Shown: piece by piece, positions 3,008 to 59,597 of the stretch
Layout of the letters: each line of letters opens with the position of its first letter
Numbering within the stretch: the first letter of the stretch is position 1
Origin: Patescibacteria group bacterium
Lineage (GTDB): Bacteria; Patescibacteriota; Patescibacteriia; Patescibacteriales; UBA12465
Direction: 5' to 3'
Assembly (NCBI GenBank): GCA_041649315.1
Contig: JBAZNJ010000001.1
Span: forward strand, 284,549-348,548
Length of the DNA: 64,000 bases
Translations under genes and position numbers: made by a program
The notes under the pieces: model-generated
The model's input: only the letters and a program-made list of their open reading frames with translations
Told to the model about the DNA's origin: nothing
Databases searched by the model: none

Positions 3008-5500
3008 CTATTTAAGCGCCTCCTTTAAATACTTCCCAGTATAACTTTTCGCGACCTTCGCCACTTCTGGCGGCGTGCCGGCCGCCACGATTTGGCCGCC
3101 TTCGTCGCCGCCGCCCGGGCCTAAATCAATAACCCAATCCACCGATTTAATCACATCTAAATTATGCTCGATAATCAAAACCGTATTCCCCTGATCGACT
3201 AACATATTTAAAACTTTCAACAAGCGGTCAATATCCGCAAAATGCAAGCCGGTGGTCGGTTCATCTAAAATATATAGTGTCCGACCGGTGGCCCGACGCG
3301 ATAATTCGGTCGCGAGCTTAATGCGCTGGGCCTCGCCGCCGGAAAAAGTCGTCGCGCTTTGGCCGAGTTTAATATAGCCGAGACCGACTTCTTCTAAGGT
3401 TTTCAATTTCTGACTCAGGGCGGAATGATTCTTAAAAAATTCCGCGGCCTCAGCAACGGTCATTTCTAAAACTTCAAAAATATTCTTGCCTTGATATAAG
3501 ACCTCTAGGACTTTCGATTTAAAACGCCGACCGCCGCAAACCTCGCAAGTCAAATAAACATCGGATAAAAATTGCATCTCAACTTTGATAACCCCGTCGC
3601 CGGCGCAATTCTCACAGCGTCCGCCCGGCACATTAAAAGAAAAATGTCCGGCGCTCAAACCTTTAACCCGCGCTTCCGGAAGTTCCGCAAAAATATCCCG
3701 GATATAAGTGAATAAACCGGTATAAGTCGCCGGATTAGAGCGCGGCGTCCGGCCGATCGGCGACTGATCAATATCAATAACCTTGTCGATTAGCTCTAAG
3801 CCGGTGAGCGCCTGATGCGCGCCCGGCTCGGTTTTCGCTCGATAAAATTTCTTGCTCAAAGCGTTCGCCAAAATATCGCTCATCAAAGTTGATTTACCCG
3901 AACCGGAAACGCCGGTAATCGCCACTAATTTGCCGAGCGGAATCTCGACGTCAATATTTTTCAAATTATGTTCGGTCGCGCCGATAATCTTGATTGCTCC
4001 GCCGTTTCCTTTCCGAAATTGCGCCGGCATCTTAATCGCCTTCTTTCCGGATAAATAAGCGCCGGTCAATGATTCGCCGCATTTTTTAATTTCCGCCGGC
4101 GTACCGGTAAATAAAACCCGACCGCCATTATCCCCGGCGCCCGGTCCGATATCAACAAGCCAATCAGCCGCCAAAATCGTCGCGGCATCATGCTCAACCA
4201 CAATTACGGTATTTCCGTTATCGCGCAGACCTTTTAAAGTCGCGATTAATTTATCATTATCCCGCTGATGCAGTCCAATAGACGGTTCGTCTAAAACATA
4301 TAAAACGCCGCTCAAAGTCGAGCCGACTTGCGAAGCGAGGCGGATCCGCTGGGCTTCGCCGCCGGACAAAGTCATGGCCGGCCGGCTTAAAGTCAAATAA
4401 TCTAAACCGACATTAGCTAAAAAATCTAAATTTTTTATAATTTCTTTAATAATCGGTTCGCTGATTTCACGCTGGCCGTTTAAAGATGTCGTGCTCTTGA
4501 GCCAACTTTTCAATAAAGCTAAAAGATCTTTAATGCTTTTATTGGTCAATTCAATGATTGATAGGTTATTTATTTTTATTTCTAAAGATTCCGGTTTCAA
4601 ACGCGCGCCCTGACAATTCGGGCATAAAGAAACGCGCATAGTTTTTTCGATTTCGCCTTTAACAAAACCGGATTTTGTCTCATTATACTTATCCTCTAAA
4701 ACTTTCAATAGGCCGCTAAAAATCCCGTCGCCGGATAAAATTAATTTTTTCTGTTCCGGAGCAAGGTCTTTAATCGCCGGCCGCAAGCTAAAATCATGGC
4801 GGGCGGCCAATTCGTTCAACTCGGAAAACAAACCGTTGCCGCTTAAATTAACATGCGACAAGGGCTTAATCGCTCCCTCTAAAATACTGAGGTTATGATT
4901 AAATATCAATTCCGGATCAATTTCCGCCTTCGTGCCTAGACCGCCGCAAGCCAAACATGCGCCGCTTGCGGAATTAAAAGAAAAATCGCGCGGTTCCGGT
5001 TCGGCGCGGCGATAGTCGCAATTCGGACAAGAAAAAAACCGTTCCAATTTCGTGGATTTTATTTGGCGGCCGCGCACATTTTTAATCGTCTTTTTCTCCT
5101 GGCTATCCTTTTTTAATTTTACCTTGCAATGCGGACAGTATGGTTGACCGGCGCGGGCGTAAAGCAAGCGCAGATAATCATAAATTTCCGTAATCGTCCC
5201 GACGGTCGAGCGCGGATTATGACCGGTCGTCCGCTGATCGATAGAAATCGCCGGCGACAAACCTTCGATCAAATCGACTTCCGGCTTATTCATTAGGCCC
5301 ACAAATTGGCGGGCATAAGAAGATAAAGATTCAACATAACGACGCTGGCCTTCAGCATAGACCGTATCAAAGGCCAAAGAAGATTTTCCCGAACCGGACA
5401 AACCGGTAATTACCACTAATTTATCCCGCGGAATATCTAAATTGATATTTTTCAAATTATTAGTCCGCGCTCCCTTGATCCTAATGAAATTACCGGCCAT
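3008..5500 (-). CDS. uvrA: Excinuclease ABC subunit A (UvrA)
   Basis: Two ABC ATPase modules ([10 protein letters not shown] and [10 protein letters not shown] Walker A; LSGGEAQR signature twice) and zinc-finger cysteines (CPHC, CPNC). At 830 aa it is shorter than canonical UvrA, as in reduced genomes. Confidence 0.9.
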
Positions 5501-5623
5501 AGAAGTTAAAAATAAAAAATAAATGTTGCCGATATTATAGCGGAAAAAATGAAAGAAGGCAAGACAAGTAAATAAAAACGCCCGAGCTTAATTAACTCGA
5601 GCATTATTTGGTTTTTATTTTAA

Positions 5624-6022
5624 TTAACATATCTTTATATCCCGAACAGCTAATTTCCCATGTTCCGAATATAAATAAAAACTGAATTCTTCTCCGGGGA
5701 AATCATCTCTTCCGTGAACATAAACGCTTTCTCCTGATTTTAAAACCTTAAATAAACTGTCTAAGGCCAAACCCGGTGTTTTCCCGGAAAAATAATCATC
5801 CCGACTCTTATAATGGATTGAACCGCCATAGCAATTCAAAAAACAAGAGCCGTCTTCATTATAAACAACCGAAAAACGGCAAGGATTCTTAAGGAGCCCC
5901 AAAGGCGTTTCCTTTAAAAATTCGTAAATTTCCTTTAATTCTCCGCCGACGTTTTCAATAAAATTCGGCAAAGAATAAAGAGAACAATACGCTTCTAAAA
6001 ATTCTAATTCTGTTTTAATCAT
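5624..6022 (-). CDS. Hypothetical protein
   Basis: 132-aa ORF with protein-like composition and no recognisable motif. Confidence 0.35.
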   Translation of the reverse strand: MIKTELEFLEAYCSLYSLPNFIENVGGELKEIYEFLKETPLGLLKNPCRFSVVYNEDGSCFLNCYGGSIHYKSRDDYFSGKTPGLALDSLFKVLKSGESVYVHGRDDFPGEEFSFYLYSEHGKLAVRDIKIC

Positions 6023-9371: not shown

Positions 9372-10481
9372 ATGAGGCAAAAAATAAAAAATTTAATAGA
9401 AATCATCTTAATTTCCCTGATTTCATTATCAATTATCTTCGGAGTTTTTAAAATTGCCCGAGCGCCGCTCGGAGAATTTATAGAAAGCCTGGCTCAAAGA
9501 GAAAATACTATCCGTGATAACGACGCCCGTTTGCCGACCGTGCCGACCGTGCCAGAAAAAGCGCCGGTCGTTTTTATTTTCGGCGGCGACGTGATGCTTT
9601 CGCGCCAGGTCAATAGCCGGATGGTAAAATATGATAACTATTCCTGGCCCTTGGCTAAAATCGCAAATTTTTTAAAAACCGCGGATTTAACAATTATCAA
9701 TCTTGAATCACCTTTTTTACTGACCGACGATTATTATGTCCCGACCGGTTCCTTTTCTTTTAAGGCCGACCCGCAGGCAATTAGCGGCCTAATCGCTGCC
9801 GGAATTGATATTGTTTCTTTGGCTAATAACCATGCTTTAAACCAGGGCGTCCGGGGGCTAAGCGATACTTTCCGGATATTAAGCGATAATGGAATAAAAT
9901 ATATCGGGGCCGGAAATAACGAGGCCGAAGCGCGGCAAGGCGAAATCATTGCTATTAACGACGATAAATTTGGCTTCCTGGCCTACGCTTATTTAAACGA
10001 CGCCTCTCTGGCCGGAGAAAATTCTTCGGGCATCGTTAATATGGATATAGAAAAAATGCAGGCTGACGTCGCAAGATTAAAAAAGCTTGGCGCGGAAGTA
10101 ATCTTAAACATGCACGCCGGCATTGAATACGTAACTGAGCCGAATCAACAACAAATTGATTTCGCTCACGCGGCCATAGACGCCGGCGCGGCCGCAGTTA
10201 TCGGCCATCATCCGCATTGGCCGCAAACTTTTGAAATTTATCAAGGCCGACCAATTATTTATTCCCTCGGTAATCTTGTTTTTGATCAGATGTGGTCGGA
10301 AGAAACCCGGCAAGGATTGCTCGCAAAAATGACTTGGCGCGACGACTGGGAAGAAATCGAATTGATTCCAATAAAAATTTATGACTACGGCCAGGCGGAA
10401 ATAATCACGGATAAAGCGGAGCGAAAAATAATCTTAGAGAAAATCGGCGCGCCGGAAAACGGGATGATTTTAATGGAATGA
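9372..10481 (+). CDS. CapA/PGA_cap family metallophosphatase-like protein (poly-gamma-glutamate capsule synthesis-like)
   Basis: N-terminal TM segment, then FIFGGDVMLSRQ, LANNHALNQG and GHHPHWPQ motifs. Confidence 0.65.
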   Translation: MRQKIKNLIEIILISLISLSIIFGVFKIARAPLGEFIESLAQRENTIRDNDARLPTVPTVPEKAPVVFIFGGDVMLSRQVNSRMVKYDNYSWPLAKIANFLKTADLTIINLESPFLLTDDYYVPTGSFSFKADPQAISGLIAAGIDIVSLANNHALNQGVRGLSDTFRILSDNGIKYIGAGNNEAEARQGEIIAINDDKFGFLAYAYLNDASLAGENSSGIVNMDIEKMQADVARLKKLGAEVILNMHAGIEYVTEPNQQQIDFAHAAIDAGAAAVIGHHPHWPQTFEIYQGRPIIYSLGNLVFDQMWSEETRQGLLAKMTWRDDWEEIELIPIKIYDYGQAEIITDKAERKIILEKIGAPENGMILME

Positions 10482-49816: not shown

Positions 49817-51190
49817 ATGCCTAAAAAAATATTAATCCTCGCTCTCTTGTCCGTCTTTATGCTTACGACCGGTTTTGGCTGTAAAACAACGGATAAAGAA
49901 ACCCGGGAAGCAATGCAACCGATTACCCTCACTTATTGGCGGGTCTTTGACGATACTGATGCCTTTGATGAAATAATCGCTAAATATAAAGCCCTGCATC
50001 CTTTCGTCACCATAAACTACCGCAAACTCCGCTACGATGAATATGAAAATGAATTGCTAAACGCCTTAGCCGAAGATCGCGGCCCAGATATTTTTTCTAT
50101 CCATAACACCTGGCTCAGAAAATACCAAACGAAATTAGCTCCGATGCCGCCGACAATTACTATGGCTTATCCGATCGTCAAAGGAACAATTAAAAAAGAA
50201 ACCGTGCCGGAACTGCGCGTCACCAATAGCTTGACCTTGAAGCAGATAAAAGATAATTTTGTCGACGCCGTAAGCAATGATGTAATACTTGATGATGGCC
50301 TGGTTTATGGCTTGCCCTTATCAGTCGATACTCTAGTGATGTATTATAACCGAGATTTATTCAACAACGCCGGCCTGATCGCCCCGCCCGCTTATTGGAA
50401 CCAGGAATTTTTACAAGACGTAAAAAAATTAACTAAGTTAAACGTAAGTCAGGAAATCGTTCAATCCGGCGCCGCTTTAGGCGCGGGAAACGTTAATCGC
50501 TTCAGCGATATTTTGTCCGTCCTGATGATGCAGAACGGCGCGATTATGATGGAAAACGGAAAATCCGCTTTTAATCTTGTGCCGAACGTATTCAAAGAAA
50601 CGGGTTATAATCCCGGCCTTGAGGCCCTGCGCTTCTATACGGATTTTTCCAATCCGGCCAAAGAGGCCTATTCCTGGAACAATGGACTGCCAAATTCTTT
50701 AGAAATGTTTATCAGCGGCAATCTGGCAATCATGTTCGGCTATGCTTATGATCTGCCGACCATTAAAGCCCAGGCGCCAAAACTTAATTTCTCAATCGCG
50801 CCACTGCCACAAATCGAAGGAAATCCGCCGACCAATATTAATTTTGCCAATTACTGGGTCGAGGTCGTTTCCAAAAAAAGCAAGCATCAAAACGAAGCCT
50901 GGGATTTCATACAATTCGTGACTGCGGCCGACCAAGCCCGGACTTATTTAGCAAAAACAAAAAAACCGACCGCCCTGCGCGCCTTAGTGCCGGAACAGAG
51001 AGATGATGACGAAATCGGCGTCTTCGCCAGACAGGTCTTAACGGCAAAAAGCTGGTACAAAGGGAAGAATCCCTTAGCGGCGGAAACCGCGATTAAAGAA
51101 ATGATTGAAGCGGTTATCAACAATCCTTTAGAAAAAATCCAGGATATAATCAATGCCGGCGCGGCCAAGGTCCAACAAACAATAAATTAA
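49817..51190 (+). CDS. ABC transporter extracellular solute-binding protein (family 1, carbohydrate-type)
   Basis: Signal peptide with GC near its end; solute-binding-protein-like composition (YWRVFDD..., LPLSVDTLVMYYN). Confidence 0.65.
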   Translation: MPKKILILALLSVFMLTTGFGCKTTDKETREAMQPITLTYWRVFDDTDAFDEIIAKYKALHPFVTINYRKLRYDEYENELLNALAEDRGPDIFSIHNTWLRKYQTKLAPMPPTITMAYPIVKGTIKKETVPELRVTNSLTLKQIKDNFVDAVSNDVILDDGLVYGLPLSVDTLVMYYNRDLFNNAGLIAPPAYWNQEFLQDVKKLTKLNVSQEIVQSGAALGAGNVNRFSDILSVLMMQNGAIMMENGKSAFNLVPNVFKETGYNPGLEALRFYTDFSNPAKEAYSWNNGLPNSLEMFISGNLAIMFGYAYDLPTIKAQAPKLNFSIAPLPQIEGNPPTNINFANYWVEVVSKKSKHQNEAWDFIQFVTAADQARTYLAKTKKPTALRALVPEQRDDDEIGVFARQVLTAKSWYKGKNPLAAETAIKEMIEAVINNPLEKIQDIINAGAAKVQQTIN

Positions 51191-51232
51191 TCAAGCGAAC
51201 CGTAAATTAATTCAGCAACAGTCCATAAATTT

Positions 51233-51673
51233 ATGTCTAAAACATGGAAAAAAATTACAATCGGGCTTTTTCTTCTACTTTTAAGCGTCGGCCTAATCGG
51301 TTTAAGCGGCGCGGCGCAAGCGCAAATAGTAGACAACACCTCGTCTAAGTATCGAACAGGAAATTACGATCTGGATGATTTTATTCGTTTAATCATAACT
51401 GCTTCCCAATGGCTCCTCGGTATCGTCGGCTCCTTGTCCCTAATAATGTTTATTTACGGCGGCGTGATGTTTTTAATCTCCGCCGGTTCAAGCGACTCGG
51501 TCGCCAAGGCAAAAAAAATAATCATTGCCGCGGTTATCGGCCTGATCATTGTTTTTTCCAGCTGGCTCCTGATCGGTTTCGTTCTCCGGACCCTTAACCC
51601 GAATATCCATTGGATCGGCATGAAAGTTGATATTAATGAAATAAAAAAAGTTGATATTAATGAAATAAAATAA
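51233..51673 (+). CDS. Secreted two-TM pilin-like protein (VirB2/TrbC-like topology). Paralogue of the 56744..59544 array, with a C-terminal KVDINEIK duplication.
   Basis: Signal peptide ending AAQAQ, then IVGSLSLIMFIYGGVMFLISAGSSDSVAKAKKIIIAAVIGLIIVFSSWLLIGFVL. The block layout is the same as in the six array members. Confidence 0.6.
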   Translation: MSKTWKKITIGLFLLLLSVGLIGLSGAAQAQIVDNTSSKYRTGNYDLDDFIRLIITASQWLLGIVGSLSLIMFIYGGVMFLISAGSSDSVAKAKKIIIAAVIGLIIVFSSWLLIGFVLRTLNPNIHWIGMKVDINEIKKVDINEIK

Positions 51674-51675
51674 GC

Positions 51676-52008
51676 ATGAACTTCTTTGTCCCGAAAAAAA
51701 TCGACGCGGAAAACAGTTGGGGCGAAAAATTGCGCTTAGCTCGAGAAGGGCGCGGCTTAGAAATAGAAGAAATCGCGAAAAAAATAAATATCCGTAGCGA
51801 TTACTTAAAAGCGTTGGAAGAAGAGCGCCTTGACCTCCTGCCGGCCGGTTTGTATGGAAAAAATTTCTTGAAAGAATATGCCGGCTTCCTGGGGCTTGAA
51901 GCTAAAAACCTGATTGAAGAACATGGCGAAATGGCTACCGAAAATATTTCTGATCCTTTTTCTAAAAAAATAGTTAAAAAAATAAATTCCTGGTTTTCCC
52001 GAAAATAA
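51676..52008 (+). CDS. HTH domain protein (RodZ N-terminal-like). Possibly the 5' part of a frameshifted gene continuing in 52023..52331.
   Basis: LRLAREGRGLEIEEIAKKINIRSDYLKALEEE HTH_25-like region. Confidence 0.5.
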   Translation: MNFFVPKKIDAENSWGEKLRLAREGRGLEIEEIAKKINIRSDYLKALEEERLDLLPAGLYGKNFLKEYAGFLGLEAKNLIEEHGEMATENISDPFSKKIVKKINSWFSRK

Positions 52009-52022
52009 TCAGAAATATCCTC

Positions 52023-52331
52023 TTGCTGGCGATCGGAATAATTTGCTTTCTTTACTTGCTTTTTTACCTGAAAAAAATTTTTCTCGCACCAGAACTTATC
52101 GTCACCCAACCGGATCGCAATCTCCTAATTTCCGAAAACTCTTTATTGATTACGGGGAAAACCGAACCGGAAGCCGAAGTAAAAATAAACGGCGAAGTTA
52201 TCCTAAACAACAACCAAGGACAATTTTCCCAAGTTATTAATTTAAAGAAGGGCCTAAACGACCTGGAAATTACCGCCCAAAAAAAATACAGTCGGGAAAA
52301 AATCGTCACCAGGCAGATTTTAGTAGAATAA
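52023..52331 (+). CDS. TM-anchored beta-rich domain protein (TTG start in the ORF track). Possibly the 3' part of a RodZ-like gene.
   Basis: TM helix then ITGKTEPEAEVKINGEVILNN...LNDLEITAQ (Ig-like). The upstream frames overlap across an A-run at 51965..51980. Confidence 0.4.
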   Translation: MLAIGIICFLYLLFYLKKIFLAPELIVTQPDRNLLISENSLLITGKTEPEAEVKINGEVILNNNQGQFSQVINLKKGLNDLEITAQKKYSREKIVTRQILVE

Positions 52332-53919: not shown

Positions 53920-54675
53920 TTATTTTAGCCTTTTCAACCGCCGACGCAAAAACCATAAATTCTTAAAAAACCCCCAGCTGTCTTTTAAAATCCGGACTGA
54001 ACTGGCGCGTCGGATAAAACGATTATCCCGCCAATCAACCGGAATTTCCTTGACCCGATATCCTAAATATTCAGCCCAAACAATTAACTCCGTATCAAAA
54101 AACCAATAATTATCCAAAAGATACGGTTGTAATTTATAAAAAGCTTCTCGCTGAATAGCTTTAAACCCGCATTGAGCATCTTTAATATTATATTTTAATA
54201 AAAATCTGGATAAAAAATTATAAATTTTAGAAATAAGCGCTCGGTTAAACGATCGCTTAGCGCTTCCGCCGGCAATAAAACGTGAACCAATTGTTAAATC
54301 GCTTTCTTTATTAATTATAGGGAAAATTAAAGCGGGAATATCAGTTAAAGCAACCGCTAAATCAACGTCCATATAAACTAAAACATCAGCCCGGCTTTCA
54401 GACCAATATTCTTTAAGCGCTCGGCCTCGGCCGGCCGGAATAATTTCCTTATAATCAATTAAACCGGAAAATTTTTCTTTAAATTCCGCTAAAATCTTAA
54501 CTGAAGAATCTTTAGAGCCGTTAATAAGCCCGATAATCCGCCAAGAAAAATTAAAATTTGCTGTCTGACAATAATTTAATAATTTTTCCAAATTAAGCCG
54601 CAAAATCGCTTCTTCGTTCCTTATCGGTAGACAAAAATCTATTAATAATTTTTTATCTTCATTCATTTTATTCAA
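53920..54675 (-). CDS. Family 2 glycosyltransferase
   Basis: GT2-like N-terminus (CLPIRNEE...DSS...YMDVDLAV DxD-like); overlaps the downstream membrane glycosyltransferase by 8 nt. Confidence 0.6.
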   Translation of the reverse strand: MNKMNEDKKLLIDFCLPIRNEEAILRLNLEKLLNYCQTANFNFSWRIIGLINGSKDSSVKILAEFKEKFSGLIDYKEIIPAGRGRALKEYWSESRADVLVYMDVDLAVALTDIPALIFPIINKESDLTIGSRFIAGGSAKRSFNRALISKIYNFLSRFLLKYNIKDAQCGFKAIQREAFYKLQPYLLDNYWFFDTELIVWAEYLGYRVKEIPVDWRDNRFIRRASSVRILKDSWGFFKNLWFLRRRLKRLK

Positions 54676-56626
54676 CTTTAAATTTTAAAATCCTTTTTTT
54701 ATAAATAACCGAGACTTCATCAAAATAAATTTTTTCCCAAATTGCGGAACTCTCTAAAAATTCTCTCAAATAATTAGGGGAGTTGAGATTTTCCGGTTTA
54801 ATCCAAAAAAGTTTTTCTTCCCATTTTTTAACTTTAATTTCCTTTTCTTTAATCGGAATAAGCACTAGGGCAATCTTATATTGCGCCAACTTGTTTTTAA
54901 TCTTATCATATTTTTCGCTTTCTGCGGTAAATTCGTCAATTCTAAAAAATTCGTAATATTCTTCTAAAAAAGTATGTCCGGCGAATTCAACTTGAGGCAA
55001 GCGTCCGTCAATAAATAATTTTTGTTCCGGCCAAACTCCGATTAAATAACCGCCCCAATTATAACTATTAAAAATTTTTAAATTATTATGCTCCGGATGA
55101 GCCCGTAAAAAATCTATCGCCGCGCAAGGATAATCGCGGCAAAAGGAAACAAAAGGATCTTTTACCGGCCGGATTAAAAATAAATTTAAAAAAATTACCA
55201 ACGATAAGCATGTTAATAAATATATTTTTAACCAAAAAGTAAGATCGCGACGCGGTTTTTTAAAATCTCCTCGCTTGTCAGTGTCCTCAATAAATAAACC
55301 GCCCTTGCTTAAATCCCGCCCAATTTCTCGAATAAACTCCGTACCCATTGAAACCAAAAAACCAAAAGTCGCGACAAACATTAAAGGAAAATGGCGACGC
55401 GATTTAACGCTTAAAAATCCAAATAAAAAAACCAAGGCAAGGGTCCATAAATCCGGTTCATCATCTTTAAAATCTCCCTCAAGCGATCTACTGTCTTGAA
55501 ATTTTTCCGCAACCGATTTATTTTCTTGAAATTCTCCCACAACCGAACTACCCTCCTTACGCTCTCCTGTAAGTTGCTTTCTGCGTCTTTTTTTTAAATT
55601 TAAAAGGTAAAAATAATAAATTATTGCCACGCCCAAAAGCGCTAAATAAGCCAATTGCCAATATTGGAAAGGAAAAGAAAACTGCGGCAACCATTCGCTA
55701 ATATGCGATAAATAAAATTTATCTTTATATCCGGCTAAAAAAGAATACAAAGATAATTTATAAGGAGTAAATAAAGTCGCAAGAAAAGAAAACGCCGTTA
55801 TACCGACAAAAATAATTAATGATCGGGTTTTTAATGGCTTAATCTTTAAAAATAAAAATGAAACCGCTCCCGTTTTATCTTCCGTTCTTATTCCCATCTC
55901 TGTTTTCATCCTTGTTTTTGTTTCCGTTTCTGCCCCCACCAAAATTTTCATTTCCATTTCCGTTTCTATTTTCATTTGCTTTTTTAGCCGCCAAAAATTT
56001 AAAATTTTCTCCAAAATTTTAACCACCAACCATAGCCCCAACAACAAAAACCCCAACAAAAAACTGCCATGCAAATTGGCCCAAAGATAAAATAATGGTG
56101 GTAAAAATAATAAAATCCAAATTTTTTGCTCCCGACGATAAAAATCAAGAATAACTAAAAGAAAAAATAAACATAATAAGCCAAGCTCTTGAACCCGGAC
56201 GCCGAAATGCGGTAGAGAAGCAATCAGTCCAAAAATTTGTAAACCGGCAATCAAAAGTGGGGGGGCTAAGGGCCAACGGCGCCGGGCATAAATATTTAAT
56301 AAAACAAAAACTAGAATAATTAAAAGCGTAAAAATGATTACCATGGCCGAATAACCCAAAGCATCGCCCACTTTAAATAACAAAAAATTACTTAACCATT
56401 CGTGATCAACCCAATCGCCGGTAAAAGTATAATTATAAATATTAGCTTGCGGAACCATTCCGGTTTTAGCAATTTCTTCACCAACCCGCCAATGCCAACC
56501 AAAATCCGGATCAAGATAGCTAAAAGAAGCCCTAATTAACAAACTAAACAGGAAAAGATAGAAAAAAATCCAGAAAATCTTAAGAAAATTATCTTTATTT
56601 GTCTTTTTAAACATAAAAATGGCCAA
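54668..56626 (-). CDS. GT-C fold membrane glycosyltransferase (ArnT/PMT-like) with an internal low-complexity E/T/M/K-rich insert
   Basis: More than 10 TM helices; N-terminal loop DPDFGWHWRVGEE...; operonic with the GT2 gene. Insert METEMEMKILVGAETETKTRMKTEMGIRTEDKT is encoded by degenerate ttttcat(t/c) repeats at about 55870..55990. Confidence 0.5.
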   Translation of the reverse strand: MAIFMFKKTNKDNFLKIFWIFFYLFLFSLLIRASFSYLDPDFGWHWRVGEEIAKTGMVPQANIYNYTFTGDWVDHEWLSNFLLFKVGDALGYSAMVIIFTLLIILVFVLLNIYARRRWPLAPPLLIAGLQIFGLIASLPHFGVRVQELGLLCLFFLLVILDFYRREQKIWILLFLPPLFYLWANLHGSFLLGFLLLGLWLVVKILEKILNFWRLKKQMKIETEMEMKILVGAETETKTRMKTEMGIRTEDKTGAVSFLFLKIKPLKTRSLIIFVGITAFSFLATLFTPYKLSLYSFLAGYKDKFYLSHISEWLPQFSFPFQYWQLAYLALLGVAIIYYFYLLNLKKRRRKQLTGERKEGSSVVGEFQENKSVAEKFQDSRSLEGDFKDDEPDLWTLALVFLFGFLSVKSRRHFPLMFVATFGFLVSMGTEFIREIGRDLSKGGLFIEDTDKRGDFKKPRRDLTFWLKIYLLTCLSLVIFLNLFLIRPVKDPFVSFCRDYPCAAIDFLRAHPEHNNLKIFNSYNWGGYLIGVWPEQKLFIDGRLPQVEFAGHTFLEEYYEFFRIDEFTAESEKYDKIKNKLAQYKIALVLIPIKEKEIKVKKWEEKLFWIKPENLNSPNYLREFLESSAIWEKIYFDEVSVIYKKRILKFKVE

Positions 56627-56743
56627 TACAAGCTATTTTATTTATATTTTAGCATGTCTAAATTTATTTGTCTTGTTTAAAATAATGTGCTAAAATTAGA
56701 GATGTAAAATAAAAAATTATAAAAACTAGAAAGGTGGTGAAAT

Positions 56744-57121
56744 ATGAAAAAAATTTACAAACACTTACTTTCTCTTGCGATTATTTCCGCTTTTGCCGTA
56801 CCGCTAGTGGCCTTTGGACAAGCTGATTTCGGTCTAGAAAACGTTGAGAGCGGATTAAACAACAGCTTAGCGTCCGGAGATCCACGGGAAATCGTCGGCC
56901 GAATTATCCAGGTCGCTTTAAGCTTCTTGGGGGTAATCGCGGTGGTCATCATCTTATACGGTGGCTTTAAATGGATGACCGCGGCCGGGAACGAAGACAA
57001 AACCGCTGAAGCGAAAAAATTATTAGGCGCCGGCGTTATTGGTTTAGTTATTATCTTGGCTTCTTGGGCGCTCGCGACTTTCCTTCTTAACACTCTCAGC
57101 GAACAAATTTCAGCAACCTAA
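56744..57121 (+). CDS. Pilin-like two-TM secreted protein, array member 1
   Basis: Signal peptide, then IVGRIIQVALSFLGVIAVVIILYGGFKWMTAAGNEDKTAEAKKLLGAGVIGLVIILASWALATFLL. Confidence 0.6.
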   Translation: MKKIYKHLLSLAIISAFAVPLVAFGQADFGLENVESGLNNSLASGDPREIVGRIIQVALSFLGVIAVVIILYGGFKWMTAAGNEDKTAEAKKLLGAGVIGLVIILASWALATFLLNTLSEQISAT

Positions 57122-57136
57122 ATTTCAAGAAAATAA

Positions 57137-57210
57137 GTGATTCTCATTTCTAATGGGAATCACTGCCTTGGCCGCGAATCTGATTCCCGCCTAAGGCAGT
57201 GATTATTTTA
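57137..57210 (+). promoter_or_regulatory. Attenuator-like element: two mutually exclusive hairpins, the second a terminator
   Basis: gtgattctcat/atgggaatcact (57137-57164) overlaps gaatcactgcctt ... aaggcagtgatt (57157-57204; 12-bp perfect stem) followed by a T-run. Confidence 0.5.
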
Positions 57211-57666
57211 TCGGACCGGATTATGGCCGCGTCCTCTTTCGTTTATAAAATTATGTTTAAGAAAATAATTTTCATCTCCGTCTTATCTTGCTTCTCGCTG
57301 GCTTTTTTATTTTTAGTCCTTCCGGCTCCGGCGGCCCAAGCGCAGAATATAATATCTGATCCGAGTTCCGGTCTAGAAGAAACCCGAAGCCAAGTTGAAG
57401 CTTTCAAAGATCAAAAAGTTGAACCGACTTTATCCGGTTTCTTGGCGACTAAAGCCGGCCAGATTATTAGTTTAGTCCTATCTTTTGTCGGCGTCTTATT
57501 CTTAATCCTGATGATTTACGCCGGCATTACCTGGATGACGGCGCAAGGAAATGAACAGCAAGTTGCAAAATCAAAAACCCTAATGATCAACGCGGTAATC
57601 GGAATAATTATTGTCTTTGCCGCGTACGCTCTGACTTCTTTCATCGGCCAGGAGCTTTTACAATAA
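57199..57666 (+). CDS. Pilin-like two-TM secreted protein, array member 2 (true start probably the internal Met at about 57223-57253)
   Basis: ...AAQAQ signal peptide; KAGQIISLVLSFVGVLFLILMIYAGITWMTAQGNEQQVAKSKTLMINAVIGIIIVFAAYALTSF. Confidence 0.6.
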   Translation: MIILSDRIMAASSFVYKIMFKKIIFISVLSCFSLAFLFLVLPAPAAQAQNIISDPSSGLEETRSQVEAFKDQKVEPTLSGFLATKAGQIISLVLSFVGVLFLILMIYAGITWMTAQGNEQQVAKSKTLMINAVIGIIIVFAAYALTSFIGQELLQ

Positions 57667-57694
57667 GCCGTTTTACCCTAAACTCCCTATCCAA

Positions 57695-58108
57695 ATGTCT
57701 AAAATCTTCCTAAAAAAACTAGCTGCAATTTTCTTGATTTCTTTTTGCTTAACCGGCGCAACAGTGGCTTTAAGCGCACCGTCCGCTTTAGCTCAAGGGG
57801 AGAGTTATGATTTTAATCGGGACAGCGGCCTAACCAAGGCCGGAGACACGGCCGGCTATGAAACCGGAGCGGACCGAACCTCGGTTGAAGATATTATCAG
57901 TAATGTCATTTATGCGGTTCTGGGCTTAGTCGGTATTATCTTTTTCGGCTTTATAATCTATGGCGGCTTAATATGGATGACCGCGCAAGGTAATGAGGAA
58001 AAAATAAAAAAGGCCACGGATATCGTGATGAACTCTTTATTCGGCCTGATTATTACTTTAGCCGCTTACGGCATCGCCTACTTCTTAATCAGCTACTTTT
58101 GGCAATAG
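57695..58108 (+). CDS. Pilin-like two-TM secreted protein, array member 3
   Basis: IISNVIYAVLGLVGIIFFGFIIYGGLIWMTAQGNEEKIKKATDIVMNSLFGLIITLAAYGIAYF. Confidence 0.6.
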   Translation: MSKIFLKKLAAIFLISFCLTGATVALSAPSALAQGESYDFNRDSGLTKAGDTAGYETGADRTSVEDIISNVIYAVLGLVGIIFFGFIIYGGLIWMTAQGNEEKIKKATDIVMNSLFGLIITLAAYGIAYFLISYFWQ

Positions 58109-58111
58109 TTT

Positions 58112-58528
58112 ATGAATAAAGTAAAGATAGTTTTTCTAACCTTAATTTTAACGGCGACGGCGCTCGGCGGCTTCTTATTCGACCCGGTTCAGGCCGCGCT
58201 TTTAAAACCGGATAAACGTGATGATCTTGAAGACTATTCTTATATCGTGGCCGAGGACAGCGGCTACCAAATGGAAAAACAAGAGCTTGAAGATATTATC
58301 GCCAACATCGTCCGAATGGTTCTCTCGGTTATCGGCGCCATTTTCGTTACTTTAATTTTCGTGGCCGGCAACCAATGGATGCAAGCGGCCGGCAATGAAG
58401 AAAAAATTAAGAAATCCAAGGGTAGGATTCAATCCGCCTTAGTCGGCCTGGTTATTATTCTGATTGCCTATGCTTTAAGCGCGGGTTTTTCCGGGGTATT
58501 AAGCTCTCTTATCCAGGGGCGCGGATAA
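58112..58528 (+). CDS. Pilin-like two-TM secreted protein, array member 4
   Basis: IIANIVRMVLSVIGAIFVTLIFVAGNQWMQAAGNEEKIKKSKGRIQSALVGLVIILIAYALSAGF. Confidence 0.6.
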   Translation: MNKVKIVFLTLILTATALGGFLFDPVQAALLKPDKRDDLEDYSYIVAEDSGYQMEKQELEDIIANIVRMVLSVIGAIFVTLIFVAGNQWMQAAGNEEKIKKSKGRIQSALVGLVIILIAYALSAGFSGVLSSLIQGRG

Positions 58529-58589
58529 ATTAAGCAGGCAAGCTCACTTATTTGAAAATTTGGGATACTTTAAACTATAAATAAGCTAT

Positions 58590-59120
58590 ATGAAAAAAAA
58601 TCTTATTAAATCCATATTCCTCCTTTTATTTTTAAGTTTTTTTCTTATCCTTCCGGGCCTTGTCTCGGCTCAAACGATAGATCCCTTGCCAGCGACTGTT
58701 TCGGCGCAACGAGATGATTATGTCCCGAGTCCGATAGACCCCTTGCCAGGCACTATCCCGACAAATGAGCCGAACCAATCTATTGTTACTTCGCCTTCCG
58801 GCTCAAGAGCCGCTTCCGGCGAAAGCCCGCTTTTAGGCCGCTTGAAAATCGTGGCGGAACGCGGCGGCTATAATACTGATCCGGCGGTCGCTTCTTCAGC
58901 TCGGATAATCGGATTAGTTGTTAGGGCTCTTCTCGGCTTCACCGGGCTTATCTTCATAGTTTTAATTATAATTAGTGGCTACACTTGGATGACCGCCTCC
59001 GGCAATGAAGAAAAAGTGAAAAAAGCGACTTCAACAATAAAAACCGCAGTAATCGGCTTAATCGTTTCTCTTTCCGCTTATACTCTTTGGACCTTTATTT
59101 TCCAAAGATTAATCAAATAG
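58590..59120 (+). CDS. Pilin-like two-TM secreted protein, array member 5 (longer Pro/Ser-rich variable region)
   Basis: RIIGLVVRALLGFTGLIFIVLIIISGYTWMTASGNEEKVKKATSTIKTAVIGLIVSLSAYTLWTF. Confidence 0.6.
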   Translation: MKKNLIKSIFLLLFLSFFLILPGLVSAQTIDPLPATVSAQRDDYVPSPIDPLPGTIPTNEPNQSIVTSPSGSRAASGESPLLGRLKIVAERGGYNTDPAVASSARIIGLVVRALLGFTGLIFIVLIIISGYTWMTASGNEEKVKKATSTIKTAVIGLIVSLSAYTLWTFIFQRLIK

Positions 59121-59124
59121 CTTT

Positions 59125-59544
59125 ATGAAAAAAACTTTTTTAATAATCGCTTTAATTTCCTTTATCGGCTTAAGCGGCGCCATAATCGCGGCACAAGCGC
59201 AGAGTCAGGGGTTGATAACCGACACGACGGCTTTAGAAACTTTAACGACTGATATGGCCTCGGCCGCCAATCTCGGCCAAACCGATATTGGGAATTTAGT
59301 CGCTTCTATAATTAGGATTGTTCTCGGTTTCTTAGGCATAATCTTCCTTGTCTTGACGATTGTTGCCGGCTTCCGTTGGATGACCGCCGGCGGCAATGAA
59401 GAACAAATAAAAAAAGCCCAGGGAATACTCCAGGCCGCGCTAATCGGCTTAGTTATCGTCCTGATGGCCTACGCAATAACTTACTTCGTCTTCAAATATC
59501 TACCGGTTAGCGGGGGCGGGGGTGGGATGCCTAATCCAAAATAA
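59125..59544 (+). CDS. Pilin-like two-TM secreted protein, array member 6 (Gly-rich C-terminus)
   Basis: LVASIIRIVLGFLGIIFLVLTIVAGFRWMTAGGNEEQIKKAQGILQAALIGLVIVLMAYAITYF. Confidence 0.6.
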   Translation: MKKTFLIIALISFIGLSGAIIAAQAQSQGLITDTTALETLTTDMASAANLGQTDIGNLVASIIRIVLGFLGIIFLVLTIVAGFRWMTAGGNEEQIKKAQGILQAALIGLVIVLMAYAITYFVFKYLPVSGGGGGMPNPK

Positions 59545-59562
59545 ATTAATAAAATATTATTT

Positions 59563-59597
59563 AAAAAAGGATGTTTACACATCCTTTTTTTATTTTT
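59563..59597 (+). terminator. Rho-independent terminator closing the pilin-like array
   Basis: aaaaaaggatgtttacacatccttttttt. Confidence 0.7.

Follow-up and report, generated by a model that had tools for sequence, protein, structure and literature searches.

Seven VirB2-like pilin paralogues and a candidate RNA leader in a Patescibacteria chromosome of the class ABY1

What is the role of seven divergent copies of one small secreted protein, six of them encoded side by side, in a housekeeping part of a Patescibacteria chromosome? The question is raised by a stretch of 64,000 nucleotides (the window) from contig JBAZNJ010000001.1 of a Patescibacteria group bacterium (assembly GCA_041649315.1, positions 284,549 to 348,548 of the forward strand). 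A preliminary description of this DNA had likened the encoded proteins to the pilins of type IV secretion systems (T4SS). The analysis presented here identifies them, by their sequences, as seven paralogous VirB2-like pilins of the T4SS_pilin family (PF18895). All seven small open reading frames (ORFs) were found where they had been placed, on the plus strand. They are listed with positions counted from the first letter of the window, lengths in amino acids (aa) and E-values against PF18895:

51233..51673, plus strand: solo seventh paralogue (p0), 146 aa, about 5 kb upstream of the array; loop FLISAGSSDS; duplicated VDINEIK(K) C-tail; E 1.7e-10
56744..57121, plus strand: pilin gene 1, 125 aa, about 100 aa mature; E 4.8e-10
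57223..57666, plus strand: pilin gene 2, 147 aa from ATG 57223, alternative ATG 57253 (137 aa); E 1.2e-7
57695..58108, plus strand: pilin gene 3, 137 aa; E 1e-11
58112..58528, plus strand: pilin gene 4, 138 aa; loop WMQAAGNEEK; E 4.9e-8
58590..59120, plus strand: pilin gene 5, 176 aa; 79-aa Pro/Ser/Thr-rich exposed N-region with an IDPLPxT repeat; E 5.4e-8
59125..59544, plus strand: pilin gene 6, 139 aa; Gly-rich C-tail; E 2.1e-6

The six array genes are contiguous, with intergenic gaps of 3-101 nt, and the short spacing reported for members 3-4 and 5-6 was measured as 3 nt and 4 nt, respectively. Scanning all frames of the window with a profile hidden Markov model (HMM) built from the seven proteins revealed no eighth member. 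The longest ORF of gene 2 (57199-57666) would encode 155 aa from its first GTG, which lies inside a conserved RNA hairpin described below, and ATG 57223 is the start called on an identical public contig (L001). Translation of gene 2 probably begins at ATG 57223 or ATG 57253, not at GTG 57199.

The comparison with Pfam profile HMMs had been set beforehand as a test able to refute the pilin reading. All seven proteins scored above the gathering cut-off of PF18895 (28.1-45.2 bits against a cut-off of 26.6 bits; E-values of 2e-6 to 1e-11), in agreement with the precomputed matches on the identical public contig, and no holin, bacteriocin or ATP-synthase family of Pfam or NCBIfam gave a score for any of the seven. 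They also aligned to nearly the whole 80-position model of NF045849 (Mbov_0395 family) at 26.4-37.7 bits (E-values of 4e-6 to 1e-9), below the cut-off of 40 bits, and sub-threshold matches to TrbC/VirB2 (PF04956) are given where the interpretation is weighed. By these profile scores, all seven are members of PF18895. The preliminary description could name no family with such a loop; such a family does exist, and NCBI records of relatives carry its annotation already. Gene 3 has 39 homologues, all of Patescibacteria type and mostly bearing PF18895, and one of them carries the NCBI name 'Type [IV] secretion system pilin [Patescibacteria group bacterium]'. The family is a very large one: in a set of 1.84 billion representatives, a profile built from all seven proteins matched 75,784 clusters (50% identity) with E-values of up to 1e-3. 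Type IV prepilins are a different matter: no PF07963 (N_methyl) match was obtained at E up to 1, and the N-termini are of the Sec type with AxA sites. Comparison of a gene 3 profile with the solved pilins VirB2 and TraA by hhalign was not significant (probability below 1%). Matches of a PDB profile search to designed 'Pizza' beta-propellers were rejected as a repeat artefact with spurious summed scores, because those proteins repeat a W-V-T-D-H-G-N motif.

The shared layout proposed for the proteins was borne out in all seven. Signal peptides were judged by a rule of thumb (hydropathy and AxA sites) and not by a dedicated predictor; all seven N-termini are Lys-rich and hydrophobic and close with an AxA-type site, which in three members takes the AQA/Q form noted before. 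The signal segment is followed by an acidic region of 23-79 aa and then by two hydrophobic helices flanking a short polar loop. The N-region varies between members as described and consists of 34% Pro/Ser/Thr in member 5. In an AlphaFold2 (AF2) model of member 3, the hairpin is formed by helices 64-96 and 101-136 with a predicted local distance difference test (pLDDT) score above 90. Over their common core, the paralogues show 29-35% identity to the first. The loop, which had been given as one motif (W-M-T-A-x-G-N-E-E-K) common to all seven and invariant, proved less uniform. The copy at 51233 reads F-L-I-S-A-G-S-S-D-S and its orthologues keep that other motif, while among the six array members, the motif begins with WMQA in member 4 and has Q instead of K as its last residue in members 2 and 6. 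Two repeats were observed in these genes. The exposed N-region of gene 5 contains an internal repeat, IDPLP(A/G)T(V/I), at 58650-58790 (plus strand), and this Pro/Ser/Thr-rich segment is a possible glycosylation or spacer segment. The 3' end of the solo paralogue (51625-51673, plus strand) is a perfect direct DNA repeat that encodes VDINEIK(K) twice.

A small precursor with a long signal peptide, two helices and a short polar loop is also characteristic of the TrbC/VirB2 family (PF04956; the Agrobacterium tumefaciens VirB2 T-pilus, 8cue/8exh; F TraA, 5ler/9moq), and a W-M pair ends helix 1 in VirB2 (ISWMFGR) and in the present proteins alike. Unlike that family, the present proteins fall below the PF04956 cut-off, have longer acidic mature N-regions, are not accompanied by an adjacent VirB3-B11 operon and belong to a monoderm host. 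The pilin-like protein of Mycoplasma integrative and conjugative elements (ICE), NF045849, resembles them in its near full-model alignment and its wall-less or monoderm host. However, NF045849 proteins are single-copy inside an ICE, whereas the present locus carries no sign of a mobile element and its scores lie below the cut-off. Divergent pilin genes side by side are known from the tandem VirB2 paralogues of Bartonella and Anaplasma (cited in PMC12102498). Those arrays are located in or near the virB operons of diderm intracellular pathogens and are read as antigenic or host-range variants, whereas the genes described here are fixed positional orthologues.

The closest known systems are found within the Patescibacteria. 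Quinonero-Coronel et al. (2025, PMC12102498) searched 3,035 genomes with PF18895 and further profiles and found VirB2-like genes in 1,948 VirB4-positive assemblies, near virB4 in 1,135 of the 1,948. The arrays they reported number 441, comprise 2-11 pilin genes each and have a mean identity of 25%; they were noted mostly in Microgenomatia and Saccharimonadia. Their array feature is a 'VirB2 array near virB4', in which one interposed non-pilin gene is allowed and near means within 20 coding sequences (CDS) on either side. In Southlakia epibionticum, a six-pilin array lies within the T4SS cluster and is essential (Wang et al., PMC10633639); a 2025 review (PMC12857230) speaks of six divergent VirB2-like pilins in Southlakia and of the pilus as a conduit to the host, the latter as speculation. 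The present array shares PF18895, tandem divergent paralogues of low identity (29-35%, against a published mean of 25%) and a monoderm, ultrasmall-cell lineage with these systems (S. epibionticum ML1 SEML1_0006-0019; the TM7x 'Sec secreted array'; the arrays of PMC12102498), and the number of six tandem pilins with Southlakia. As Patescibacteria pilin arrays have already been published, the locus belongs to a described kind. It differs in that the published arrays were scored near virB4 whereas no T4SS gene was found in the 64-kb window, and in its class, ABY1, which PMC12102498 did not highlight for arrays. Divergent VirB2-like pilin arrays in Patescibacteria are therefore not new; what is added here is a conserved architecture, an unlinked position and, above all, a covarying RNA leader. 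No description of the conserved order of one solo plus six tandem genes (1+6), of a Shine-Dalgarno sequence at gene 1 only or of the RNA leader was found in the array literature searched.

The conservation of this architecture was followed in related loci, which were gathered with an alignment of gene 3 orthologues. The comparison set comprises 82 sources (80 genome loci, one Logan contig and the window). The relatives, GTDB species genomes, are Falkowbacteria, Magasanikbacteria, Uhrbacteria and other Patescibacteria. Falkowbacteria are assigned to the class ABY1 in a published genome table, and the locus lies in a Falkowbacteria-like Patescibacteria chromosome of this class. A run of exactly six pilin genes was present in 54/82 sources, 37 of which also have the upstream solo copy. 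For positions 0, 1, 2, 3, 5 and 6, the best match between genomes occupied the same place in the array in 68-84% of cases; position 4 was the least position-conserved, with 31% same-position best matches. The median identity of same-position orthologues (44-57%) exceeds the identity between paralogues, and gene 3 orthologues keep the N-region motif Y-x-F-x3-S-G-L...A-G-Y. This positional orthology and the conserved N-region motifs indicate old, fixed paralogues and not rapidly varying cassettes. The diversification of a surface-exposed structure that had been suggested for this locus is thus seen between paralogues, whose N-regions differ, but not between same-position orthologues, whose N-regions are conserved. 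Recurrent neighbours of the array are a solute-binding protein (SBP) gene (60 loci), the gene of a 652-aa membrane protein kept beside the array (42), phosphoenolpyruvate synthase (40), ComM (25) and SMC (19).

The signals for expression single out the first gene of the array. Gene 1 has the sole strong Shine-Dalgarno sequence, AAAGGTGGTGA, at 56727-56743 (plus strand). Of 53 related loci, 87% have a Shine-Dalgarno match of at least 5 nt at position 1, against 0-8% at the other positions; among other genes of the window, only 4/53 have one. Gene 1 is also the shortest member, the most conserved position and the member with the top TrbC score (15.2 bits). Its Shine-Dalgarno sequence and its likeness to TrbC make gene 1 probably the major subunit. 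The spacing of the genes is equally asymmetric across the related loci, with a median gap of 79 nt after gene 1 and of 3-7 nt at the other four junctions. Two further signals flank the array:

56668..56696, plus strand: promoter-like site upstream of gene 1, TTGTCT-17-TAAAAT with extended TG, 9/12 consensus matches; weak, a consensus match alone
59563..59590, plus strand: terminator-like hairpin with U-tract after gene 6, a 12-bp stem followed by TTTTTTTATTTTTT; canonical intrinsic type

Stable structure 3' of gene 6 was found in 49/53 related loci. The six tandem genes are predicted to form one operon that is ended by the hairpin at 59563..59590.

The wide gap after gene 1 is occupied by a structured element:

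57129..57216, plus strand: two-hairpin RNA, candidate leader of gene 2; hairpin H1 at about 57136-57164, hairpin H2 at about 57165-57197; fold -30.5 kcal/mol, z -3.8

The 80 nt that follow gene 1 fold far beyond shuffled sequences in 45/53 loci (median -29 kcal/mol, z -5.6), an excess seen in 0/53 in-gene controls. H1 is conserved in sequence (GUGAUUCUCAU-loop-AUGGGAAUCAC), while in H2 the base is conserved (CACUG...CAGUG) and the inner stem varies. RNAalifold returned 25 pairs with compensatory changes at 18 of them. In an alignment of 44 sequences, which was fitted to a covariance model and is hence biased toward the structure, 95.8% of the cells are paired and 23/25 pairs have changed on both sides; this was reached by 0/500 shuffles, and sliding the partner columns lowers pairing to 47% or less. 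The covariance model gave one plus-strand match per locus in 51/81 sources and none elsewhere in 1.43 Mb. Wherever coordinates were compared, the matches sit at the junction of genes 1 and 2, and the motif occurs once in the window. None of 4227 Rfam covariance models matched 57129-57216 at E up to 10.

The element is read as a sense RNA and not as a DNA palindrome, since a U·G pair is kept in 41/44 sequences and plus-strand scores (40-87 bits) exceed those of the minus strand (24-39 bits). Its position is tied to the downstream gene. The distance from the end of H2 to the ATG of gene 2 has a mode of 15 nt, and in two relatives (L007 and L010) the element lies 12 nt from this ATG, yet 70-77 nt from the stop codon of gene 1. 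This fixed spacing marks it as a leader of gene 2 rather than as part of the 3' region of gene 1. The hairpins are also unlikely to be a mere intrinsic terminator for gene 1, both for this reason and because most copies lack a U-tract right after the stem and a canonical terminator is found after gene 6 instead. We propose that the two-hairpin RNA is a candidate new cis-regulatory RNA, which may govern how genes 2-6, lacking Shine-Dalgarno sequences, are translated, or may serve as a processing or stability site.

In fimbrial operons, among others, the ratio of subunits is known to be set by structured RNAs between cistrons, such as the papB-papA stem-loop. The likeness lies in a stable hairpin between a putative major-subunit gene and the downstream genes of the operon. 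In contrast to papB-papA, the element described here is spaced to the downstream start and not to the upstream stop, has a conserved H1 sequence and has no Rfam match.

Taken with the literature on T4SS, these observations allow a sequence of steps to be proposed. The precursors would be inserted by Sec and cut at the AxA site, as expected from their sequences and from what is known of VirB2/TrbC. The two-helix hairpin would remain in the membrane, with the acidic N-region facing outward and the G-N-E-E-K loop in the cytoplasm. This membrane pool may be drawn on by a VirB4-powered T4SS of the monoderm type that is encoded elsewhere, as the literature and the context suggest, and a pilus-like surface structure made by it would be used in epibiotic host contact. 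The operon would yield one abundant subunit from gene 1 and five accessory subunits at low level from genes 2-6, which lack Shine-Dalgarno sequences, are tightly packed and stand behind the RNA leader, and would therefore be made in low, fixed proportions. One abundant and five accessory subunits from a single operon would imply joint use in fixed proportions and not interchangeable variants. We consider it reasonably probable that a VirB4-type T4SS elsewhere in the genome builds a surface filament from these proteins, with gene 1 providing the major and genes 2-6 the minor subunits under the RNA leader.

Several observations weigh against this proposal. As the preliminary description had stated, the window contains no T4SS component; at Pfam sensitivity, its ORFs of at least 110 aa gave no match to a T4SS ATPase, VirB4, VirD4, VirB6/TrbL, VirB3/PrgI or VirB8 over 64 kb. 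A VirB4-like P-loop ORF of at least 400 aa was found within 10 kb of the array in none of 80 related loci, and one related assembly (L055) is listed without VirB4 in the published table, a scaffold-level assembly that is perhaps incomplete. The matches to TrbC/VirB2 remain below the threshold of 27.9 bits: 5/7 proteins score 11-15 bits (E-values of 0.025-0.38) over the hairpin and 2/7 do not match. The highest such score, 24.6 bits over the full model (E-value of 2.9e-5), belongs to the position-1 orthologue of one relative (L009) and is still below this cut-off. The division into a major and five minor subunits is inferred from sequence signals alone. No pilus was reported for any Patescibacteria T4SS in the literature searched. 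Finally, fused proteins of up to ~17 hairpin units, described below, are at least as compatible with an assembly that stays in the membrane as with a filament.

The chromosomal context bears directly on this point. By Pfam and NCBIfam, the ORFs of the window describe a housekeeping chromosome (UvrA, SMC and ComM/YifB for DNA repair and chromosome maintenance; S6, SSB, EF-P, TsaD, TsaE and YchF for translation and tRNA modification; ClpP and LspA for protein processing). With six contiguous genes, the array fits the published definition in number (2-11 tandem pilin genes), yet no virB4 lies within 20 CDS of it among the genes visible in the window, which shows about 50 genes upstream and about 3 genes (about 4.5 kb) downstream of the array; the related loci extend 10 kb downstream. 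The case is illustrated by the genome of L009 (GCA_000999715.1), in which VirB4 and TrsD are found at CDS 572-573 and a single VirB2 is listed at CDS 711, 139 CDS away (PMC12102498). All seven ORFs of the 1+6 set were found above the PF18895 cut-off in this genome (LCGL01000001.1, 6502-11848). With seven PF18895 ORFs against one listed VirB2, unlinked ABY1 arrays appear to be under-counted.

The solo pilin gene has a context of its own (49817-52331, plus strand). It lies 42 nt 3' of an orphan lipoprotein-type SBP_bac_1 gene, near which no permease or ATPase gene was found, and 2 nt 5' of an HTH_25/RodZ-like gene. The latter, which would encode 218 aa with HTH_25 and Glucodextran_B domains (RodZ-like; 51676-52331), is split into 110 + 102 aa by a 1-nt indel in an A-rich stretch at about 51983, as compared with the otherwise identical contig L082. 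An assembly error or a frameshift at the strain level would each explain the indel.

Other arrangements of the same family were also observed. Many family members are natural 'poly-pilins', in which one signal peptide is followed by 2 to ~17 T4SS_pilin hairpin units (proteins P0040, P0043, P0044 and P0046; the loci L083 and L085 were inspected). One fused-unit protein of 1775 aa matches both TrbC and T4SS_pilin, and its contig also encodes the ribosomal protein L39e; this contig is probably archaeal. Six-unit fusions were considered as a collinear fusion of genes 1-6, which was rejected, as their units do not map to the positions in order. In L083, 16 pilin genes follow one another and the whole array follows the same SBP (region 3699-5822).

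These contexts give some substance to a different explanation, in which the seven proteins form a T4SS-independent, membrane-resident hetero-oligomer of structural or channel-like nature, possibly together with the adjacent orphan solute-binding lipoprotein. The lack of a VirB4-like gene within 10 kb in the 80 related loci, the housekeeping surroundings and the related assembly listed without VirB4 would all be expected in this case. So would the solo copy directly after SBP_bac_1, the rank of the SBP as the most conserved neighbour and the 16-gene array behind the same SBP, and polyproteins in which 2 to ~17 units share one signal peptide would be polytopic membrane proteins. However, members of the same Pfam family are encoded beside virB4 in most Patescibacteria, and in Southlakia they are, like the T4SS genes, essential. 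VirB4 and TrsD do occur in a relative that shares the array layout (L009), the assembly listed without VirB4 is at scaffold level and perhaps incomplete, and no conserved intramembrane charged residue suggestive of a channel or rotor was seen in the proteins. We therefore judge a complex independent of a T4SS to be unlikely.

It has also been proposed that such pilins are interchangeable and used singly, which would widen the host range or evade recognition, an idea put forward for Bartonella and Anaplasma and suggested for Patescibacteria (PMC12102498). The exposed N-regions of the present paralogues are strongly different, with 29-35% identity overall, as this would require. Against it stand the conserved orthologue that each position has across genomes, N-region motif included, the tight packing of the genes into one operon with a single terminator, and the conserved expression signals that distinguish gene 1 alone. 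In addition, no inverted repeats, recombinase or silent-cassette arrangement were noticed in a survey of the window ORFs. Variation by exchange of pilins thus appears quite improbable at this locus. That the proteins are not pilins at all, such as small toxins of the holin or bacteriocin type or hairpins like ATP-synthase subunit c, is barely credible: a helical hairpin is a generic fold and F1Fo subunit c (1a91) was among weak Foldseek matches, but the HMM results effectively refute the idea, helix 2 has no conserved carboxylate, and no immunity or lysis genes adjoin the array.

Two genes on the opposite strand between the solo copy and the array may be connected with a surface-exposed product:

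53920-54675, minus strand: family 2 glycosyltransferase (GT2; PF00535), with weak NCBIfam matches to polyprenyl-phosphate hexose synthases
54668-56626, minus strand: 652-aa membrane glycosyltransferase of GT-C fold (AF2 fold match), divergent from the array and overlapping the GT2 gene by 8 nt

The 652-aa protein has no Pfam or NCBIfam match, and its homologues have uninformative names, the named ones being called 'hypothetical protein'. Its AlphaFold model (pLDDT 85; predicted template modelling score, pTM, 0.86) matches the protein-glycosylating GT-C enzymes DPY19, STT3, AglB and PglB with a probability of 1.00 and E-values of 9e-6 to 9e-3, and the residues D39 and D41 are invariant within a conserved YLDPDxGWH motif. 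The protein also contains a low-complexity insert of about 110 aa, rich in E/T/K/M, that is absent from most homologues. Glycosylation of the exposed pilin N-regions, which would link these GT2 and GT-C neighbours to the pilins, is a reasonable but conjectural idea. When the sequences were read by eye, N-glycosylation sequons were found in some pilin N-regions only, which speaks neither for nor against it.

A general feature of the window was noted in addition. TATAAT-like hexamers lie no more than about 10 nt upstream of several start codons (for example at 9372, 12072, 26001 and 30961) and Shine-Dalgarno sequences are mostly absent, which hints at frequent leaderless or very short-leader mRNAs.

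A more far-reaching reading can also be considered. The six array pilins might form an obligate, ordered hetero-assembly of one major and five fixed minor subunits, with a stoichiometry set by the RNA leader and N-regions glycosylated by the GT-C neighbour, as a housekeeping chromosomal unit of ABY1 that is physically uncoupled from the T4SS and possibly independent of it. To this combination we would assign only a low probability.

VirB2-like arrays are essential in the one species tested, and yet the T4SS of these bacteria is of the monoderm type, which should not need a pilus. Counts of arrays that are scored near virB4 miss those encoded elsewhere. The locus offers several handles on this problem, namely a gene 1 nominated as the major subunit, a covarying RNA that possibly controls the other five genes, and a neighbour resembling protein glycosyltransferases. 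A set of seven paralogues that is fixed in a conserved order throughout a lineage would point to joint use of these pilins rather than to variation.

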